From a virus: a stretch of DNA of 5,821 nucleotides. Below, in pieces: positions 1-5,821 of this stretch. A program made the translations under genes and the position numbers. The notes beneath the pieces were generated by a model. It ran no database searches, was not told the DNA's origin, and worked only from the letters and a program-made list of their open reading frames with translations. Every line of letters starts with the position of its first letter. Position 1 is the first letter of the stretch. The DNA is taken from positions 1 through 5,821 of the IMG/VR virus record IMGVR_UViG_3300045988_014126; one strand, written 5' to 3'.

Positions 1-55
1 AGGACGTGAAGTAGTCGTGGAACTTACCCGCTTTTGCGGGCTTCATTCCGTATAA
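1..55. repeat. Terminal direct repeat (circular-genome assembly overlap), identical to 5767..5821
   Basis: The 55 nt aggacgtgaagtagtcgtggaacttacccgcttttgcgggcttcattccgtataa occur at both window ends. The capsid reading frame runs through the junction without interruption. Confidence 0.95.
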
Positions 56-625
56 CGTTCCTTCGTTTGTGTTGGTTGTTAGGTTCGGTTCGTTTGCATA
101 GTTTGCTATGTCAACTTCTCCGTCAGCAGCCTCTCCGCCATCATCGGTTTTTTTGTATCCCAGCATTAACGGTGCTTCCGTATTTTCGTCTCTGAACCAT
201 TCATTGTAGATCATGGCATATGCGCGTGCTGGTAGTGCGTTGACTTTGATTTTTTTGTTTACTTTTGTAGGCAGTCCGAAGTAGTCTCCAATGCTTCCGC
301 TTTGGATGCCTTTTTCTGTTCCGAAACTGCATTTAGGTGTGCTGTATTCGGTCTTTTCTGCCCAGTAGTTTGTGTCGTTTTCTCCGAACATGTTTTCCCA
401 GTGTTCCCACAGCAGACGACAGGGAACGAAGAAGAAATAGGTGTCCATGTAGCAGTTATCCATGATAGGATAGATGGGTGTGCTCATGCGAATGAGCCCA
501 TTCAGTTGCACTTTTGCGGTATCGCCCGGTAGCACTTCATCACAGTAGATGGGTACAAGTTCACCTTCGTTGATGGTCGTCAACAGCTGGTGACTTCGGT
601 CAAATTTGCTGCGTGGTCGTTCCAT
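1..625 (-). CDS. VP1: Major capsid protein VP1/F, N-terminal part (about aa 1-208); continues across the circular junction into 4724..5821
   Basis: Hand translation of the - strand from ATG (625..623) stays open to the window edge: MERPRSKFDRSHQLLTTINEGELVPIYCDEVLPGDTAKV...GSIGDYFGLP...ALPARAYAMIYNEWFRDEN. These are hallmark N-terminal motifs of Microviridae capsid proteins. The ORF is missing from the ORF track because it runs off the edge. Met at 46 equals Met at 5812, so the two pieces join in frame to give 555 aa. The start codon is uncertain: no SD precedes it, and an in-frame GTG lies at 634. Confidence 0.9.
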   Translation of the reverse strand, partial: MERPRSKFDRSHQLLTTINEGELVPIYCDEVLPGDTAKVQLNGLIRMSTPIYPIMDNCYMDTYFFFVPCRLLWEHWENMFGENDTNYWAEKTEYSTPKCSFGTEKGIQSGSIGDYFGLPTKVNKKIKVNALPARAYAMIYNEWFRDENTEAPLMLGYKKTDDGGEAADGEVDIANYANEPNLTTNTNEGTLYGMKPAKAGKFHDYFTS

Positions 626-650
626 TCGCGGCACTTGTGCGAAATGGTTT

Positions 651-1076
651 TCACTGTTTCGGTTCGTTTTCCTTCACCTCTTCCTTCTTTTCTTCCTCTT
701 TCGGCTTCGGCTGTTCGGTCTGCTGTACCTTTTTCAGCTGTTCCAGCGTTTTGGCTGCTGCTTCCGCCTTTTCGTGCATCTTCATGATATCCTTCGGCAG
801 ATTTTCGAGGTCAGTCCCTTCGGTGTATACCATGCTCTTTGCCTTGATGCTGGTATCCCCCGCTTCCAGTCGTGCGATTGCGCTTGCGAGGTCGTAGCCC
901 TCGCCGGCTCGCTGGATTTTTTCGTATGTGTCCTCATCCGGCTGCTGGACATAGTCGGTAGTGCCGTTCGGTCGCTTGATTGCTTTCCACGTTGGTGCGG
1001 TCTTGCTGCCCGGATTGTTTGCCACTCTCTCGGTCGGTGCGCCGTAGTACCGCACCATTACATCAGGATTTAACAT
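651..1076 (-). CDS. VP3: Internal scaffolding protein, VP3-like (141 aa)
   Basis: The ORF lies immediately upstream of VP1, as in gokushoviruses. An SD (GAAGGAG) sits 7-8 nt before the ATG at 1076, and the ORF overlaps the preceding gene by 14 nt. It has a charged K/E-rich C-terminal tail, and a central segment (GYDLASAIARLEAGD...YTEGTDLENLPKD) resembles remembered VP3 scaffolds. The assignment rests on size, synteny and loose resemblance only. Confidence 0.6.
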   Translation of the reverse strand: MLNPDVMVRYYGAPTERVANNPGSKTAPTWKAIKRPNGTTDYVQQPDEDTYEKIQRAGEGYDLASAIARLEAGDTSIKAKSMVYTEGTDLENLPKDIMKMHEKAEAAAKTLEQLKKVQQTEQPKPKEEEKKEEVKENEPKQ

Positions 1077-1317
1077 TGGCCGTCTCCTTCAGGTCGATGA
1101 GCCGTGCGATGTGTTCAGGCATTGCTTCGCTCATGTAGCCCGTTTCGGTGTCGAATTCGCCTAGTTCTACGAGTGAAATATCTTCGATTTCACTCGGCTT
1201 GCTTTCGTTTGCTTTCCAGCGTGCCGTTCGCACTGCCTGTGCCCTGTTGTTCTGTAGGAACGGCTGTGAGTAGCCATTGGTGAGTGCATCGTGGAATGAA
1301 TAGAATTTCAGTTTCAT
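1063..1317 (-). CDS. VP5: VP5-like small nonstructural protein (84 aa; gokushovirus ORF5 family, proposed role in ssDNA synthesis/packaging)
   Basis: The SD AAAGGAG lies 7 nt upstream of the ATG at 1317. The pattern MKLKFYSFHD....YSQPF...N...A.R ... ELGEFDTETG matches the remembered VP5 signature (F.V.D.....PF......A.R.F ... L.E.G.FD.ETG). Its position upstream of VP3 fits gokushovirus synteny. Confidence 0.6.
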   Translation of the reverse strand: MKLKFYSFHDALTNGYSQPFLQNNRAQAVRTARWKANESKPSEIEDISLVELGEFDTETGYMSEAMPEHIARLIDLKETANVKS

Positions 1318-1329
1318 GTTTTTTCTCCT

Positions 1330-1446
1330 TTACTCTTTGTCTTTATTCGCGTCTTTCAGTGCGTGGTAGATTTCATCGAGCTTTTCAAGGATGTTCATCA
1401 TCAGTGCAATTGCTTCCTTAACGTCCTTGACCTTGATTAATGCCAT
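1330..1446 (-). CDS. Hypothetical small protein, 38 aa (below the ORF-track cutoff)
   Basis: Hand translation gives MALIKVKDVKEAIALMMNILEKLDEIYHALKDANKDKE*. A G-rich SD (AAAGGGGG) lies 6 nt upstream of the ATG at 1446. The TAA stop is embedded in the SD of the next gene (TAAAGGAG). The ORF fills an otherwise empty gap in a tightly packed operon and looks like an amphipathic helix without a TM segment. Confidence 0.45.
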   Translation of the reverse strand: MALIKVKDVKEAIALMMNILEKLDEIYHALKDANKDKE

Positions 1447-1475
1447 TTTATGCCCCCTTTCTTTGTTTGTATTGT

Positions 1476-1592
1476 TTACAATCTGATTCCGCCTCTTGAT
1501 ACTTTCGGGCGAACGTTGATGTTTTTTACCCGCTTTGCAGTCTGGGTAAAACGTTTCTGATCGCCTCGACCTGCTCCGCTTCTGTGTGCCAT
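1476..1592 (-). CDS. Small highly basic DNA-binding/packaging protein, J-like (VP8-like), 38 aa
   Basis: The ATG at 1592 is preceded by a strong SD (AAAGGAGTGAACAAATG). The product MAHRSGAGRGDQKRFTQTAKRVKNINVRPKVSRGGIRL is R/K rich and ends in the RGGIRL-type C-terminus remembered from microvirus J-like proteins. phiX174 J is also 38 aa. The ORF track extends this frame to 1664 (62 aa), but that upstream start has a poorer SD. Confidence 0.65.
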   Translation of the reverse strand: MAHRSGAGRGDQKRFTQTAKRVKNINVRPKVSRGGIRL

Positions 1593-1737
1593 TTGTTCAC
1601 TCCTTTTTTGTTTTTTCTGTTTCGTCCTCAATTTGCTTTTTTGGTCTGGTCTCGTGCATTCCATGATTTCATTGCTTATCCTTCTTTCCAGGTTATGGTG
1701 TCATTTGATTATCGCTTGATCCTGATACGTTTCATTG

Positions 1738-2130
1738 TCACACCCCCTTTCTGTATTTTTTTCCGGTTCTCACATCAAAGTGCACCCAACTTTTGTACAC
1801 GATAATGCCGCATTCATTCGGGATTAATTCATTCAGTTTGTTGGCAACTTCTTTTGGATTCATTCCATCCACCCGGAAGTCTGCGGCCATGCCGCGCATG
1901 TGATATGAGTATTTTGCTCCACCACATTTTGCGTTCCACTCTGGTGTTCTGTATCCGCTGGTGATTATTACTGGTTTTCCCAGTTTATGTCGGAGGATGT
2001 CCAGAACGTTGTATAAGTAGTCGTCTATGAATACTACCGGACTGCCGTCTTTACACGCAAATTCTTTTACTTTGAAGTGTCTAGCAAGCTGTACATTTCC
2101 GTCTGTGTTCAGTATATAGCTTTTAATCAT
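1738..2130 (-). CDS. Peptidase M15 family (LAS-fold zinc D-Ala-D-Ala carboxypeptidase / endolysin-like cell-wall hydrolase), about 130 aa
   Basis: Zinc-ligand motifs are readable directly: SGYR...SYHMRGMAAD fits S-x-H-x-x-G-x-A-x-D, and a second His lies in WVHFDV. The N-terminal FKVKEFACKDG is typical of Peptidase_M15_3-like proteins. The preferred start is the ATG at 2130, with GGAGG (2140..2144) 9 nt upstream and an ATGATTAA overlap with the stop of the previous ORF. The track start at 2160 is a TTG. Confidence 0.85.
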   Translation of the reverse strand: MIKSYILNTDGNVQLARHFKVKEFACKDGSPVVFIDDYLYNVLDILRHKLGKPVIITSGYRTPEWNAKCGGAKYSYHMRGMAADFRVDGMNPKEVANKLNELIPNECGIIVYKSWVHFDVRTGKKYRKGV

Positions 2131-2314
2131 CTTCGTCAACCTCCGTGAAGTATATTTCAACCGTTTCGATTCTTTTCAGTGAATACAATCCCGGGTTTTC
2201 TTTTGCGTATGCTTCTGCACGTTTTTTCGCGTCCCTTGGCTCTTCTGTCATTCTGAGTACTGTTGTTGTGATTCCATTGCTGTTTAAATCTCTGAGTTCG
2301 TATTGGTGTTTCAT
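2123..2314 (-). CDS. Hypothetical protein, 63 aa, hydrophilic with an acidic C-terminal tail (EVDEDD)
   Basis: The ATG at 2314 follows AAGGAG (2323..2328) with an 8-nt spacer. The stop overlaps the start of the M15 peptidase gene, suggesting translational coupling. No motif recognised and no TM segment. Confidence 0.6.
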   Translation of the reverse strand: MKHQYELRDLNSNGITTTVLRMTEEPRDAKKRAEAYAKENPGLYSLKRIETVEIYFTEVDEDD

Positions 2315-2341
2315 TTTAATTTCTCCTTTCTTTCTGATTCT

Positions 2342-2370
2342 ATTATATCATATGTCAATAGGGCTTTAAA
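2342..2370 (-). promoter_or_regulatory. Candidate sigma70-type extended -10 promoter for the orf63/peptidase module
   Basis: The - strand reads TTTAAA (2370..2365), a 17-nt spacer, then TGATATAAT (TGn + TATAAT, 2350..2342). This lies about 28 nt upstream of the orf63 ATG and just upstream of its SD. The -10 is perfect and the -35 matches 4 of 6. A perfect TTGACA (2358..2353) also occurs but only 5 nt from the -10, so it is not used in this model. Confidence 0.4.
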
Positions 2371-2499
2371 TGATTTTGGTGTTTTGTAATATATTTGTAA
2401 CCTGGTTTTGCTCCTTTGTTTTGAAAGCGCTTTAGCGCCTTGCCGTGCGGAGCGCATGCGGAGCTCGGCTAAATCCATTCCTTTTTAGCGCTGTGCGCG

Positions 2500-3504
2500 T
2501 CATACTTTCGGTTCACGCCATTTTTGCTTTAGCTTGTCTTTTTCTTTCTGAATGTTGAGATAGGTTTCATAATCCACGCTTGTGTTCTGTTCGAGATTGA
2601 CTAAACTTTGTATTGCGTTGCGTCTCCGTTTGGCTCTAACCTCTCTCAGCTCGTCAGAATGTGCCCTAAAATAGCTTTCTGTGTCTTGGCTGGTATTTTT
2701 ATCTAGAATCTTATCAAAATAGCGTGGTGGCCTTTTCTCGCGTCCTCCTGCGCATATGATGCTATCTGTTTTCAAGATTTCATCTTTGTGTTCGTTTAGA
2801 TACTTTTCGCCGATTCCTTTCGACATGATTCTAAACTCTGGTTCTCTGCCTTGCATCCAGTATTTTGCCTCTTGCTCTGCACCTATGGCTTTTTTGTTGA
2901 CGTACTGTGCTACATATGCGTAGCTGCCCGGCTGTGCTGGTGAAAAGTCTATCATGCCTTTGCCCCATATTTTTTGTAACCACTCGCTTTTAAAATAGCT
3001 GTTGCCTTTTTGGTTTTTGTACCATTGTGCATCCGGTGGCTTTAGCCCAAATATTATCGCATGGTAGTGTGGTCTTTTTGTTCTGTCGCCGTATTCGGCT
3101 GCTAGGAAGTATTTTATTGGCTTTTTGTACGCTTTCCTTAGCCGTTTTAGAAATAGCTGCACGTCTCGTTTGCTTACTGTCTGACTTTGAATGCTTTTGT
3201 AGCCTTTGATGATCTCGCCGTAAGGTATGTGTTCATCGTCATACGTCAGTGTTAGAAAAATTACATCGTCCCATTCTTTGGCTTCTAGTTCTATTCTGGT
3301 TGCCCATTGGTCAGCCATCTGTTTGCGGCAATATTCGCACTTACCGCATGGTAACAATGCGAATTTTCCTTTTTTGATTCCGTCCATGATGTCCGCTTGT
3401 AGTCCTTGTTTTGATAGGCTTTCCAGACTTCCCCACAGTTGTGGTTTTTTCGTATCCATTTGAAATACTAATGGTTTTGTACATGGCATTTTTGTTACCG
3501 GCAC
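2500..3504 (-). CDS. VP4: Replication initiation protein VP4 (HUH rolling-circle endonuclease, phiX174 gpA family)
   Basis: Three rolling-circle Rep motifs are present: FLTLTYDDEH (motif 1), RPHYHAIIFG (HUH, motif 2) and YAYVAQYVNKK (two-tyrosine motif 3, nearly identical to phiX174 gpA YVAKYVNK). There is also a CGKCEYCR Cys cluster. The track start at 3504 is a GTG. The ATG at 3489 (MPCTKPL...) resembles typical VP4 N-termini and is an equally plausible start. Confidence 0.92.
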   Translation of the reverse strand: MPVTKMPCTKPLVFQMDTKKPQLWGSLESLSKQGLQADIMDGIKKGKFALLPCGKCEYCRKQMADQWATRIELEAKEWDDVIFLTLTYDDEHIPYGEIIKGYKSIQSQTVSKRDVQLFLKRLRKAYKKPIKYFLAAEYGDRTKRPHYHAIIFGLKPPDAQWYKNQKGNSYFKSEWLQKIWGKGMIDFSPAQPGSYAYVAQYVNKKAIGAEQEAKYWMQGREPEFRIMSKGIGEKYLNEHKDEILKTDSIICAGGREKRPPRYFDKILDKNTSQDTESYFRAHSDELREVRAKRRRNAIQSLVNLEQNTSVDYETYLNIQKEKDKLKQKWREPKV

Positions 3505-3531
3505 AAGCTTCCTTGTCTATCTTGTGCCGGT
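3497..3531 (-). promoter_or_regulatory. Stem-loop covering the rep translation-initiation region
   Basis: An inverted repeat pairs ccggcacaag (3498..3507) with cttgtgccgg (3521..3530), plus an A:T pair at 3497/3531, giving an 11-bp stem and a 13-nt loop. On the coding strand the loop displays AAGGAAG (SD-like), and the 3' arm of the stem contains the GTG at 3504..3502. The ATG at 3489 lies 8 nt past the stem. Confidence 0.55.
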
Positions 3532-3564
3532 TGACACCTCGCTTTCTTTATATATTAACTTGTT

Positions 3565-3585
3565 GTAGTCGTAGTAGTAGTAGTG
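3565..3585. repeat. Trinucleotide microsatellite (GTN)7 including perfect (GTA)4
   Basis: The sequence gta gtc gta gta gta gta gtg runs directly into the first TGTTGAA iteron. (GTA)4 occupies 3571..3582. Confidence 0.85.
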
Positions 3586-3752
3586 TTGAAAGTGTTGAAA
3601 ACTCGTTTTTTTAACGTTAATACGTTTATTTATTGCCTTTTTCCCTGTTGAAAACTTTGTTGAAAACTTGTTGAATTGTTGAATGTTCGTCATTTTGACG
3701 AATTTCTTTGTGCAACTTGTTGTTGAAAACCTGTTGAAAGTGTTGAAAACTC
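3584..3752. repeat. Iteron-like array: nine copies of TGTTGAA(A/T) in three clusters, bounded by a 21-nt perfect direct repeat
   Basis: TGTTGAA cores start at 3584, 3593 | 3646, 3658, 3669, 3677 | 3721, 3732, 3741, with intra-cluster spacing of 8-12 nt. The 21-mer tgttgaaagtgttgaaaactc occurs at 3584..3604 and again at 3732..3752. The whole array lies in the only long noncoding region, between the VP2 stop and the rep start. Confidence 0.85.
3686..3702. repeat. Perfect 7-bp inverted repeat (ttcgtca ttt tgacgaa) between iteron clusters B and C
   Basis: This was read directly: arms 3686..3692 and 3696..3702 with a 3-nt loop. A 10-bp palindrome ttaacgttaa (3611..3620) lies between clusters A and B, and gaaaac tcaa gttttc (3745..3760) follows cluster C. 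Confidence 0.7.
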
Positions 3753-3796
3753 AAGTTTTCCACATTCTCTATTTTTTGGATTATTGTTGTTTAAAA

Positions 3797-3818
3797 GGGG
3801 GATGTTTTACCATCCCCC
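3797..3818 (-). terminator. Candidate rho-independent terminator after VP2
   Basis: On the - strand, GGGGGATG gtaaaa CATCCCCC forms an 8-bp stem that is mostly G:C. It is followed by TTTT and starts 9 nt after the VP2 TAA stop (3830..3828). The T-tract is only 4 nt long. Confidence 0.5.
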
Positions 3819-3827
3819 CTTCCTTTC

Positions 3828-4685
3828 TTAGTTTCCTCTGTATGCGTTGAATGTGTCCATGTTTGGCATGATCGGTACTCTTTGGTTGTATTTTTTGTAT
3901 TTTCCCGCTGTGTCTTTGGCTGCTTCACCAGCTTTTTTTGCCGCGTCTTTGGCCGCCTTACCAGCTCCTGCAAGGCCTGCGCCTAACTTGTTTGCCGCAT
4001 AGCTGTACTGTTGTGCCTGTTTTGCACTTGAGCTTGCTAGTTCGCTTGCCGATTGTTCCCAGCTTTTTGCCGCTTTGATCTGTTTTGCGCTGGTGGCCTG
4101 TTTTGCTAGCTGTAAGTATTTGTCTGCTAGCTCTGCTGTGTTGTTGCCGTATTCATACATTGCTGATACGCTTGCGGCCTGTGCGCTTTGCTGGTTATAA
4201 TGCTGGCTTCCAATGCTTGCTGATGCTCCTGCTGGTGCGCTTGTTGCGCCGTTGGTCGCTGCCAGAATAGGATTGATGCCCGCTGCGATCATGTCCTTTA
4301 CGGTGTCCTGATAGGCTGTCCCGCGCATCTCCTTTTGAAATGCTCGTTCCGCTGCTGCTTCTGCGCTGTTGTACTTCTTGGCGCTTGCTTGGCTTCCAGC
4401 GTTCGCGAGGTTGCTCAGCAGTCCGCTCATCATTTGCAGTGCGTTTGCTGTGTTTACGCTGCTCTGATTGCCGAATGTGGCAATACCTGTAGGTGTGCTG
4501 ATTTGTGTTGCGCCTATCTGCTGCGGTGCTGTTATACTGCCGGTTGTGGTTTCGTTGCCTGTGCTGCTCTCGCTGCCTGTCCCTTGGCTGTTTTTGGCGC
4601 TGCTCTGGTTACTGCTTGTTATGATGCCTGTTAGCATGCTTAATCCTTGCATGAGGTACGGCATGAAGCTTAACAATGTTTCCAT
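3828..4685 (-). CDS. VP2: Minor capsid / DNA pilot protein VP2 (H-like), 285 aa
   Basis: The motif AERAFQKEMRGTAYQDTVKDMIAAGINPILA matches the conserved pilot-protein core (ER..NTAYQR.V.DM..AG.NP). The N-terminus is hydrophobic (METLLSFMPYLMQGLSMLTGII), and the rest is low-complexity S/T/G/Q/A-rich sequence with an A/K-rich tail. The position directly after VP1 fits. Confidence 0.85.
   Translation of the reverse strand: METLLSFMPYLMQGLSMLTGIITSSNQSSAKNSQGTGSESSTGNETTTGSITAPQQIGATQISTPTGIATFGNQSSVNTANALQMMSGLLSNLANAGSQASAKKYNSAEAAAERAFQKEMRGTAYQDTVKDMIAAGINPILAATNGATSAPAGASASIGSQHYNQQSAQAASVSAMYEYGNNTAELADKYLQLAKQATSAKQIKAAKSWEQSASELASSSAKQAQQYSYAANKLGAGLAGAGKAAKDAAKKAGEAAKDTAGKYKKYNQRVPIMPNMDTFNAYRGN
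3912..3966 (-). repeat. In-frame 33-nt tandem duplication inside the VP2 C-terminal tail
   Basis: gtctttggctgcttcaccagct (3912..3933) and gtctttggccgccttaccagct (3945..3966) match at 19 of 22 positions with a 33-nt period (11 codons). They encode AGKAAKDAAKK / AGEAAKDTAGK. Confidence 0.6.
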
Positions 4686-4693
4686 TCAAAAAT

Positions 4694-4713
4694 AGCCCCG
4701 CTTTTGCGGGGCT
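4694..4713 (-). terminator. GC-rich hairpin with U-tract between VP1 stop and VP2 start (partial terminator/attenuator; also bridges SD to ATG)
   Basis: The - strand reads AAAAAAGGAGGA AGCCCCGC AAAA GCGGGGCT ATTTTTGA ATG: an 8-bp stem, a 4-nt loop and a run of 5 T. The hairpin lies in the 38-nt gap between the VP1 TAA (4726..4724) and the VP2 ATG (4685). Confidence 0.55.
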
Positions 4714-4723
4714 TCCTCCTTTT

Positions 4724-5821
4724 TTAAATTCTTTCAATTCCGGGAATGCTGTAAATAGGCATCTCCCTGAACCAGTTTTCTGTGAAATAGAAGTCGCACA
4801 AGAACTGGTGCGATACGTTGCTTGTCACTGCAATCGTTCGGTCAATGTTCTGTGTTCCCTCTTGAATCCACTCCGCCGAGAGGCGCGGAAGTGCTTCATA
4901 ATCGTCTGCATAGTGCCATGCGTCCAAACTTGCCTGATAGTTCGATCGCATTTCTCCGGTTACGTAAGATGGCTTGTAGCGGTAATCCGCCCAAGCCTCC
5001 TGGTAGCCGAAGATTTCTTCGTCTTCATGAGTGCCTTGTGCATAGATTTCACGGTTATACACTGGCTGTTCGCCCAGTGCTGCCAATCGCGGATCGTAGT
5101 ATGTGAACCGCCCGCCACGCGTCCACTTGGTCGCAAGTCCTTGCTGGTAGCTGTGCTCTACTCGTACCACTGCCAGACCAATGATATAGCCGTATTCGGT
5201 CGCCGCATAGTCCACCATCTGCTTGCTACATGTGGTCAGACTGTATGCAGCCGTATTGCCCAGCGCCTGTCCGGTTGTCGTGTCTGTCTGGCTCGTCTGC
5301 ACAACCTGATTGACATTGATGGCGATGCGCTGACCGCCGATGTATTCAGGAATCTGTAGCCGGCTGTCCGGGCTTGTTACGCCCCATGTACCAGACAGGA
5401 ATTCACGGTATCTCGTGCCGTTTCTGGCGTCTGCTTCAAAGATGTGCTGCAAGGCAATTGCCATGCGCAAGTCTTGTATGCTGATTGCGCTTACGTTGCT
5501 AAGGTTTGCGCCTAGATATGCAACATCAAGTACTTGTTCTGTTGAGCTTGCGCTGCCTGTAACAAGTGAAGTTCTTGCTCCTTCTACATTGCTGTTGCCG
5601 ATGTTTGGCGCTAAAGCGCTTCCTGTTAACGTTTGGTTAAGGAAGATTTGATTTTTTCCTGCTACTGTCCCGAATTCTGTGAGATCTTGGTTTTTGTACA
5701 GTCCTACTGGTGCATTGCCCGTCAGGTTGATTTCCACAGGGTCAGATTTCAACGGACTTGGCAGACAGGACGTGAAGTAGTCGTGGAACTTACCCGCTTT
5801 TGCGGGCTTCATTCCGTATAA
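4724..5821 (-). CDS. VP1: Major capsid protein VP1/F, C-terminal part (aa 191-555); N-terminus is at 625..56 across the circular junction
   Basis: The 362-aa track ORF stays open upstream to the window edge. It contains conserved capsid motifs: FHDYFTSCLP, SIQDLRMAIALQHIFEADARNGTRYREFL and RLQIPEYIGG. An N/S/T/G-rich segment (about 5494..5749) sits where gokushovirus capsids carry their variable surface insertion. Confidence 0.92.
   Translation of the reverse strand, partial: LYGMKPAKAGKFHDYFTSCLPSPLKSDPVEINLTGNAPVGLYKNQDLTEFGTVAGKNQIFLNQTLTGSALAPNIGNSNVEGARTSLVTGSASSTEQVLDVAYLGANLSNVSAISIQDLRMAIALQHIFEADARNGTRYREFLSGTWGVTSPDSRLQIPEYIGGQRIAINVNQVVQTSQTDTTTGQALGNTAAYSLTTCSKQMVDYAATEYGYIIGLAVVRVEHSYQQGLATKWTRGGRFTYYDPRLAALGEQPVYNREIYAQGTHEDEEIFGYQEAWADYRYKPSYVTGEMRSNYQASLDAWHYADDYEALPRLSAEWIQEGTQNIDRTIAVTSNVSHQFLCDFYFTENWFREMPIYSIPGIERI
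5767..5821. repeat. Terminal direct repeat, second copy of 1..55
   Basis: Exact 55-nt identity with the window start. Confidence 0.95.

Follow-up and report, generated by a model that had tools for sequence, protein, structure and literature searches.

A predicted M15 endolysin without a recognisable holin in a clade of gut gokushoviruses

Gokushoviruses are among the most abundant phages of the human gut, and to our knowledge the mechanism of host lysis has not been shown for any of them. The question is raised in a compact form by the IMG/VR record IMGVR_UViG_3300045988_014126, of which positions 1 to 5,821 (5,821 nt, referred to as the window) were analysed. Because the first 55 nt of the window recur at its end, it is a complete circular gokushovirus, closed as a 5,766-nt circle. 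Its minus strand carries, at 1738..2130, the coding sequence of a zinc peptidase of family M15_3. How can a wall-directed enzyme reach its substrate in a phage in which neither an export signal nor a holin is recognised?

We consider it likely that the M15 protein is the endolysin of this phage and attacks the host wall as infection ends. Since no signal, signal-anchor-release (SAR) segment or transmembrane (TM) partner was found, the membrane step would have to be non-canonical. The endolysin role is suggested by the family and fold of the protein, by its fixation and purifying selection in the clade, by the holin-endolysin cassettes around its tailed-phage homologues, by the previous literature and by the activity of the microvirus enzyme Ebor Gp7. 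According to this proposal, M15 would be made in the cytoplasm as a single-domain zinc peptidase and would cut peptide stems or cross-links of the host peptidoglycan, releasing the progeny; the late timing and the bond cleaved are presumed. We add here that M15 is fixed in a large gut clade, and that this clade lacks a coding-strand holin (50 of 53 near-complete relatives), a signal peptide and a peptide resembling E of phiX174.

The M15 enzyme and its relatives

The open reading frame (ORF) on the minus strand spans 1738..2160 when read from a TTG, while the ATG at 2130, preceded at a distance of 9 nt by a GGAGG Shine-Dalgarno (SD) sequence (2140..2144, minus strand, read from the sequence), gives 130 aa and is the likely start codon. 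Initiation at the TTG at 2160, which is in frame, would lengthen the protein by 10 non-hydrophobic residues. For comparison, 62 related IMG/VR contigs with VP1 68-92% identical were collected, 53 of them near-complete, and 43 of the 62 M15 ORFs extracted from them have exactly 130 aa. The predicted product is a single-domain, basic protein of 14.9 kDa (pI 9.4). Two motifs are directly visible in it, as the preliminary description of this DNA had noted: S-Y-H-M-R-G-M-A-A-D (aa 75-84; 1879..1908, minus strand) with the zinc ligands H77 and D84, and W-V-H-F-D (aa 115-119; 1774..1788, minus strand) with the third zinc ligand H117 and the conserved D119. The triad H77, D84 and H117 is invariant in both of our alignments, A1 with 31 sequences and A2 with 10 sequences including tailed-phage enzymes. 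The positions invariant from the microviruses to the tailed-phage enzymes are H18, F19, E23, S58, G59, R61, N66, K73, S75, H77, G80, A82, A83, D84, H117, D119 and R121.

Judged by its sequence, the protein belongs to Peptidase M15_3 (MEROPS M15; clan Peptidase_MD / LAS). The Pfam profile Peptidase_M15_3 (PF08291) matched over positions 2-108 of its 108 with E=7.7e-23 and 81.1 bits (gathering score 23.2), and Peptidase_M15_2 also matched above its own cut-off. PHROG 894, annotated 'endolysin', matched at 7.2e-44, while the match to NCBIfam MepK, an L,D-endopeptidase, stayed far under its cut-off (44 vs 185 bits). By sequence, the Streptomyces Zn D-Ala-D-Ala carboxypeptidase 1lbu was found in the PDB (E=2e-4, aligned over S-x-H-x-x-G-x-A-A-D), and a PDB profile search with alignment A1 returned nothing beyond it. 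The AlphaFold2 (AF2) model of M15 is of moderate confidence, with a predicted local distance difference test score (pLDDT) of 71.7. Its fold neighbours in the PDB are ShhN, 1lbu, VanXYg/VanXYc, LysECD7, ChiX and the T5 endolysin, and in BFVD 37 structures were matched at E<=1e-3 (best 1e-11), all of them M15 peptidases, including those of Microvirus mar50/52/54. The model is thus supportive of a LAS / Hedgehog-DD-peptidase fold, although not strong evidence alone. M15 shares the zinc site H-x6-D...H and the fold with the Streptomyces albus G carboxypeptidase 1lbu and other LAS enzymes (ShhN, VanXY, T5 endolysin, ChiX, LysECD7); the identity to 1lbu is only ~26% over the core, from which the substrate bond cannot be inferred. 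Both the profile search and the structure prediction, which the preliminary description had suggested as a check, therefore bear out its claim of a true M15/LAS peptidase, for which a muralytic role is predicted.

The same description regarded M15 peptidases as noted only sporadically in microviruses, and in this point it has to be revised. M15_3 peptidases were reported in five human-gut Gokushovirinae and six Alpavirinae, their horizontal acquisition was inferred, and holins were found beside the bacterial or prophage homologues; an endolysin role was proposed and Gram-positive hosts were speculated for some gokushoviruses (Roux et al. 2012, PMC3394797). GenBank relatives are annotated as 'peptidase M15' (KX513876, KX513868, KX513877) or 'similar to peptidase' (MG945xxx), and in these human-gut Gokushovirinae the same gene likewise lies between VP4 and VP5, with a protein 64-85% identical. 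Other microvirus lineages have been described with an M15 peptidase or a 'lys' gene as standard content. Using tblastn, the M15 gene was found in 888 phage records, more than 100 of which are microviruses. At E<=1e-5, our search of a protein collection gave 1,243 clusters of 90% identity, of which the best 120 are all at least 78% identical, and the near-complete contigs bearing their genes measure ~5-6 kb. The gene is present in all 62 IMG/VR relatives, including 53 of 53 near-complete genomes, and is under purifying selection (median dN/dS 0.18, 883 pairs). In this large clade of gut gokushoviruses M15 is a core gene, fixed and under selection, and as such a known, widespread and already annotated feature of these phages. 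A microvirus peptidoglycan hydrolase with activity verified by zymogram is Gp7 of the Rhodobacter microvirus Ebor ('Tainavirinae'), which is also free-standing and has ~146 aa; Ebor belongs to another subfamily, and Gp7 need not be of the same enzyme family as M15.

The closest known enzymes outside the microviruses are the single-domain M15 endolysins that tailed phages encode (the Faecalibacterium phages FP_oengus, Toutatis, Aster and Lelie; Vibrio phage 1.256.O; the Citrobacter podophage CrRp3/SP6-like), which are 44-50% identical over the whole domain and share size, basic pI, motifs and a C-terminal K-x-R-W/K-G tail with the microviral protein. This basic tail was also considered as a microvirus-specific adaptation to membranes or packaging, which was ruled out, since it recurs in the tailed-phage endolysins. 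Counted as 50%-identity clusters, the family numbers 12,356 members at E<=1e-3. Its closest multi-domain representatives are modular lysins (GH25+M15_3, M15_3+SH3_3, PG_binding_1+M15_3, NAGPA+M15_3), which supports a wall-directed activity, and the microviral M15 corresponds to the bare catalytic domain. In the tailed phages the gene stands in lysis cassettes: the order is endolysin, hypothetical gene and holin in FP_oengus as well as in CrRp3, and in the Vibrio phage M15 is followed by a TM protein. We infer that M15 was acquired horizontally from such cassettes as a catalytic domain only, while the holin was left behind.

Within the clade two alleles of M15 exist. Allele 1 is 62-89% identical to the enzyme of the window and shows 44-50% identity to the single-domain endolysins of both Faecalibacterium and Vibrio phages, whereas allele 2 is only ~45% identical to the window's enzyme and with 55% closer to the endolysin of the Citrobacter podophage CrRp3 than to allele 1. 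Since allele 2 sits on VP4 backgrounds that are otherwise 95% identical, the sequences indicate an exchange of the alleles by recombination. M15 appears to have become a core gene of a clade from the mammalian gut that is traded between lineages as two alleles. Both alleles also occur on near-identical VP4/VP2/VP5 backgrounds among the IMG/VR relatives (e.g. L028 4521-4910, L051, L062).

Not all M15 domains of phages belong to endolysins. Some form part of large proteins of the tail or baseplate in tailed phages (BFVD matches of 1020 and 1191 aa, Gp5-OB-fold fusions), and Ebor Gp7 is found in virions. In analogy, a few M15 copies in or on the virion could open thick monoderm peptidoglycan locally for DNA delivery, and a Clostridiales host would present such a thick wall. 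We regard a function in entry as very unlikely, however. The closest homologues are free-standing endolysins of 115-140 aa beside holins and not structural fusions, and M15 itself stands alone among the non-structural genes, between VP4 and VP5, and was never fused to VP2 or VP1 in ~96 genomes. Its basic tail, being common to the tailed-phage endolysins, is not a packaging adaptation, a T=1 capsid offers little spare volume, and the amount of Ebor Gp7 in virions is only trace.

The missing membrane step

The preliminary description had seen neither a signal nor a TM segment in M15, no TM helix in any small ORF, and the N-terminus of VP2 as the only hydrophobic stretch, and it had left room for an overlapping holin that escaped detection. 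We therefore scanned the circularised genome for Kyte-Doolittle hydrophobicity over 19 residues, taking in all ORFs of 20 aa or more in the three frames of the coding strand, with 1.6 taken as TM-grade. No ORF on the coding strand reached 1.6, overlapping ORFs included, and the maximum of 1.42 lies at the VP2 N-terminus. The three observations hold, while an overlapping TM holin is excluded on the coding strand. The N-terminus of M15, MIKSYILNTDGNVQLARHFK, is hydrophilic, without a signal peptide or SAR segment, and none of the M15 ORFs of the 62 relatives scores 1.6 or more. N-terminal extensions were considered as a hidden signal, namely the one from the TTG at 2160 and the gene calls of 155-200 aa in relatives, and were rejected as hydrophilic read-through of upstream ORFs similar to orf55 or orf63. 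In some relatives, an orf55-like ORF continues into M15 without a change of frame, and the resulting gene calls span 171-200 aa.

The same picture emerged for the clade. A TM-grade ORF is absent from 50 of 53 near-complete IMG/VR relatives, from 9 of 12 GenBank relatives and from 20 of 20 further M15-positive microvirus contigs, whereas 50 of 55 tailed-phage contigs retrieved with the M15 profile have a TM ORF on the same strand not more than 1.5 kb away, which often starts a few bases past the M15 stop. No small TM holin or pinholin encoded with M15 was found on the coding strand, so that the canonical holin-endolysin cassette is represented by its enzyme half only. Ebor encodes a predicted 45-aa membrane protein, Gp1, and the M15 clade has none. 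That no holin is found is a robust feature of the clade and does not stem from a gap in the reading of one genome, and the question of membrane passage raised in the preliminary description is real and extends to the whole clade.

Small, strongly hydrophobic ORFs of 35-49 aa are present in a few M15-carrying microviruses, i.e. the relatives L007 (5057-5176), L062 (3999-4142) and L064 (111-260), and Dulem virus 195 (PP511409), where an annotated 35-aa hydrophobic ORF lies just past VP2 (2593-2700). This hints that different lineages may solve the membrane step differently.

A different kind of hydrophobic ORF is frequent on the plus strand (2145-2369, 4468-4695 and a 227-aa ORF at 4676-5359). 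These were rejected as artefacts of composition and codon bias; a further long and very hydrophobic plus-strand ORF runs antisense to genes at 606-1073. The coding strand consists of 37% A and 17% T, and TTA, CTA and TCA make up 11 of the 558 VP1 codons. Due to this A-rich, T-poor composition and the avoidance of the three codons, hydrophobic antisense ORFs arise, and an antisense ORF of 124-319 aa was found in every relative. They are not evidence of genes, but a trap for searches aimed at TM proteins or holins.

Alternatively, a membrane lesion of the canonical type could exist: surplus VP2 could serve as a late holin equivalent by inserting its N-terminal hydrophobic helix into the membrane, or an overlooked TM mini-gene, e.g. 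on the complementary strand, could take over this function. The VP2 N-terminus is the sole membrane-like segment and is conserved across the relatives with scores of 1.36-1.62, and the H protein of phiX174, its functional analogue, reportedly forms a membrane-spanning tube. In favour of a mini-gene, one complementary-strand ORF was described beside a microviral peptidase (Roux et al. 2012, PMC3394797), and stray TM ORFs occur in L007, L062, L064 and Dulem virus 195. We nevertheless judge either solution unlikely. The bore of an H-type tube would presumably collapse the membrane potential, yet be too narrow for a folded 15-kDa enzyme, and in most genomes VP2 scores below the usual TM threshold. 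The hydrophobic plus-strand ORFs are a composition artefact, and microviruses transcribe one strand only.

The second possibility is that no membrane step is needed. A microvirus lysis function for comparison is protein E of phiX174, a non-enzymatic inhibitor of MraY, which is a TM peptide embedded in another gene; an E-type embedded TM amurin was not found in the three coding-strand frames of the window. M15 could replace it enzymatically if it stayed in the cytoplasm and cleaved the stem peptide of soluble or lipid-linked precursors of the wall (UDP-MurNAc-pentapeptide, lipid I/II); wall synthesis would then be starved, and cells would burst as they grow. This would be an enzymatic version of the single-gene lysis by the 'protein antibiotic' E, and it would account for the lack of a holin, signal and SAR segment throughout the clade. 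Cytoplasmic D-Ala-D-Ala and UDP-MurNAc-pentapeptide are the substrates of VanX and VanXY, which are relatives within M15, and the structural matches include VanXYg and VanXYc; blocking the precursor supply is the known strategy of microviruses (also stated by Roux et al. 2012, PMC3394797). Attractive as this possibility is, its probability is very low in our view, given that the nearest relatives of M15 are wall-acting lysins coupled to holins and cell-wall-binding domains and that M15 shows no microvirus-specific sequence change. Moreover, T7 lysozyme, lambda R and the T5 M15 endolysin are tolerated in the cytoplasm of E. coli without lysis.

orf38 as a candidate partner

With M15 as the probable endolysin, the neighbouring mini-gene orf38 (1330..1446, minus strand) deserves attention. 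It is a core gene of the clade, strictly conserved, and has a strong SD sequence; its product is an amphipathic coiled-coil mini-protein of 38 aa, which has a pI of 5.7 and ends in an acidic tail. The AF2 model predicts a single alpha-helix from residue 6 to 37 (pLDDT 87), and the sequence shows a clean heptad pattern (V6, V9, I13, M16, L20, L23, Y27, L30) and a broad hydrophobic face. Homologues have 34-42 aa and share the near-invariant core I-L-x-x-L-D-x-I-Y-H. The family comprises 1,540 clusters at 90% identity; the best 120 of these have no Pfam match, are named 'hypothetical protein' or not at all, and are mostly located on contigs that do not exceed a microvirus genome in length.

Among the microvirus contigs examined, 95 carry both M15 and orf38 and four neither, none has orf38 without M15, and the sole genome with M15 and without orf38 is that of Dulem virus 195. 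In most lineages orf38 starts 1-5 nt past the M15 stop, and in genomes with allele 2 it ends just before the M15 start. Since it usually abuts M15, orf38 occupies the slot where tailed phages place the holin: M15 of tailed phages adjoins a holin or TM protein, whereas microviral M15 has orf38 before or after it instead. In the sub-lineage of the window, the 38-aa J gene stands between the two. This order, M15-J-orf38 and not M15-orf38-J, marks the sub-lineage; apart from it, nothing essential separates the genome from the M15-bearing human-gut Gokushovirinae described before. Altogether three gene orders occur in the clade, M15-J-orf38, M15-orf38-J and J-orf38-M15, and the types of orf38 reassort partly independently of the M15 alleles.

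orf38 shows no detectable homology to the TM protein that follows M15 in tailed phages, and the idea that it is a truncated relative of the ~80-aa TM protein following M15 of Faecalibacterium phages was ruled out (hhalign probability 0.07%). As an obligatory partner of M15, the accessory ORF orf63 was also considered, because the region of its stop codon and the M15 start overlap by 8 nt (2123-2130). This overlap suggests translational coupling; orf63 was rejected, as no more than 12 of 53 relatives have it.

Our preferred candidate for the membrane step, though at a low probability, is orf38; in a functional link with the endolysin it could work at the membrane itself, or it could escort or regulate M15. 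It could oligomerise into a membrane lesion, it could escort M15 via a host export route, or it could time the release of M15. In mycobacteriophage Ms6, Gp1 escorts LysA through a host export route. It is somewhat more doubtful still, though conceivable, that M15 and orf38 together make up a lysis module of two genes that needs no holin and is specific to gut gokushoviruses.

Several points weigh against an endolysin of this kind and against its proposed partner. A cytoplasmic endolysin needs a membrane lesion or an export route, and none could be identified: no coding-strand ORF of the genome reaches a 19-residue score of 1.6, nor does any ORF in 50 of the 53 relatives. The PDB fold matches of M15 are weak (E ~5e-3, template-modelling score ~0.5; the probability for ShhN and 1lbu is 1.00), which is due to the only moderately confident model. 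With a hydrophobicity of 1.07, orf38 is too low for a TM helix, and it is slightly acidic. Its co-occurrence with M15 is confounded by common descent, and orf38 is always close to the very basic J gene. Common descent and the compact genome could give the same pattern, and together with the proximity of J this is why we do not rate the functional link higher.

If the link is true, orf38 would represent a new class of endolysin partner without a TM domain. With M15 fixed in the clade and a holin, signal peptide and E-like peptide lacking there, gokushovirus lysis becomes a sharply posed, testable question about one small enzyme and one 38-residue candidate partner, both of which are easy to synthesise. 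A TM-free route, if there is one, would add to the known repertoire of phage lysis, and very compact lysis modules or enzybiotics directed at Clostridiales would be possible; if the membrane step is trivial, M15 is merely a well-annotated ordinary gene.

Host and genome organisation

The hosts of the clade are probably Clostridiales. CRISPR spacers predict this order as host of gut Gokushoviridae (Shah et al. 2023). The 132-kb contig CALWEH010000003.1 of an uncultured Clostridia metagenome-assembled genome (MAG) contains an integrated gokushovirus-like prophage, which is a distant relative (VP1 41% identical). The strong GGAGG sites before most genes of the window, found 5' of M15, orf38, orf63, VP5 and the 38-aa J gene, would argue against a Bacteroidetes host, for which SD usage is the basis. 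The similarity of M15 was also considered and is not decisive, since allele 1 is about equally near to Faecalibacterium and Vibrio phages and allele 2 is nearest to a Citrobacter podophage. CAVKUS010000079.1, a complete microvirus of the clade (VP1 81% identical) with M15 and orf38 and the one close match of a prophage search for the host, was rejected as host evidence: it is a free contig of 5,739 nt binned in the MAG 'Bacteroides sp. CAG:545', which is probably a binning artefact.

The prophage in CALWEH010000003.1 occupies 6333-11188, contains VP5-like, VP3-like, VP1, VP2 and VP4 genes and is flanked by host genes; a tyrosine-recombinase (XerC/D-like) gene, serS and lexA are nearby. It is devoid of M15 and orf38 and begins with a 71-aa ORF with an N-terminal TM helix (6333-6548), which is possibly a lysis peptide. 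Another relative, IMGVR_UViG_3300045988_004182 (VP1 80% identical), has 10,711 nt, i.e. about twice a microvirus genome, and may be a concatemer or an assembly artefact.

Among public genomes, two human-gut gokushoviruses are nearest to the window: KX513876, at 85% nt identity across 98% of the genome, and MT121961. Gokushovirus-type genomes have their characteristic genes on one strand of a circle of ~4.5-6 kb; the window carries VP1 (Phage_F), the VP2 pilot, VP4 (Rep), VP5/ORF5, VP3-like and J-like genes, and every recognisable gene is on the minus strand. The order of transcription is VP1, VP2, 320 nt of non-coding DNA, VP4, orf55, orf63, M15, J-like, orf38, VP5 and VP3-like. The major capsid gene VP1 wraps the circle, with its N-terminal part at 1..625 (ATG at 625) and its C-terminal part at 4724..5766 (Pfam Phage_F, 3.5e-98). 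The gene of the DNA pilot protein VP2, assigned by PHROG, lies at 3828..4685, and its N-terminal hydrophobic helix comprises aa 4-22 (nt 4620-4676). The replication initiator VP4 (2500..3504) and the VP5/Phage_ORF5 protein (1063..1317) were assigned by Pfam and PHROG. Between VP4 and M15 lie the basic accessory orf55 (2311..2478), present in 24 of 53 relatives, and the acidic accessory orf63 (2123..2314). The basic DNA-binding protein similar to J/ORF8 has 38 aa when read from an internal ATG with SD sequence (1476..1592); a longer ORF of 62 aa extends to 1664, where the real start is probably not located. The gene of the VP3-like internal scaffolding protein (651..1076) matches Chlamy_scaf weakly (22.3 bits, cut-off 25).

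GC-rich hairpins followed by T-runs stand on the minus strand directly 3' of VP1 (4694-4713, in the gap between VP1 and VP2) and of VP2 (3797-3818), and are similar to the attenuating intergenic terminators of phiX174. The sole sizeable non-coding region (3505-3827) contains at least eight copies of TGTTGAAA(A/G)(C/T) in direct and inverted repeats and may represent an origin, iteron or promoter region. A perfect 11-bp hairpin at 3497-3531 overlaps the start of VP4, and the segment 3548-3748 is 81% identical to the pig-faeces microvirus MG945447, whose remaining DNA shares little with the genome.

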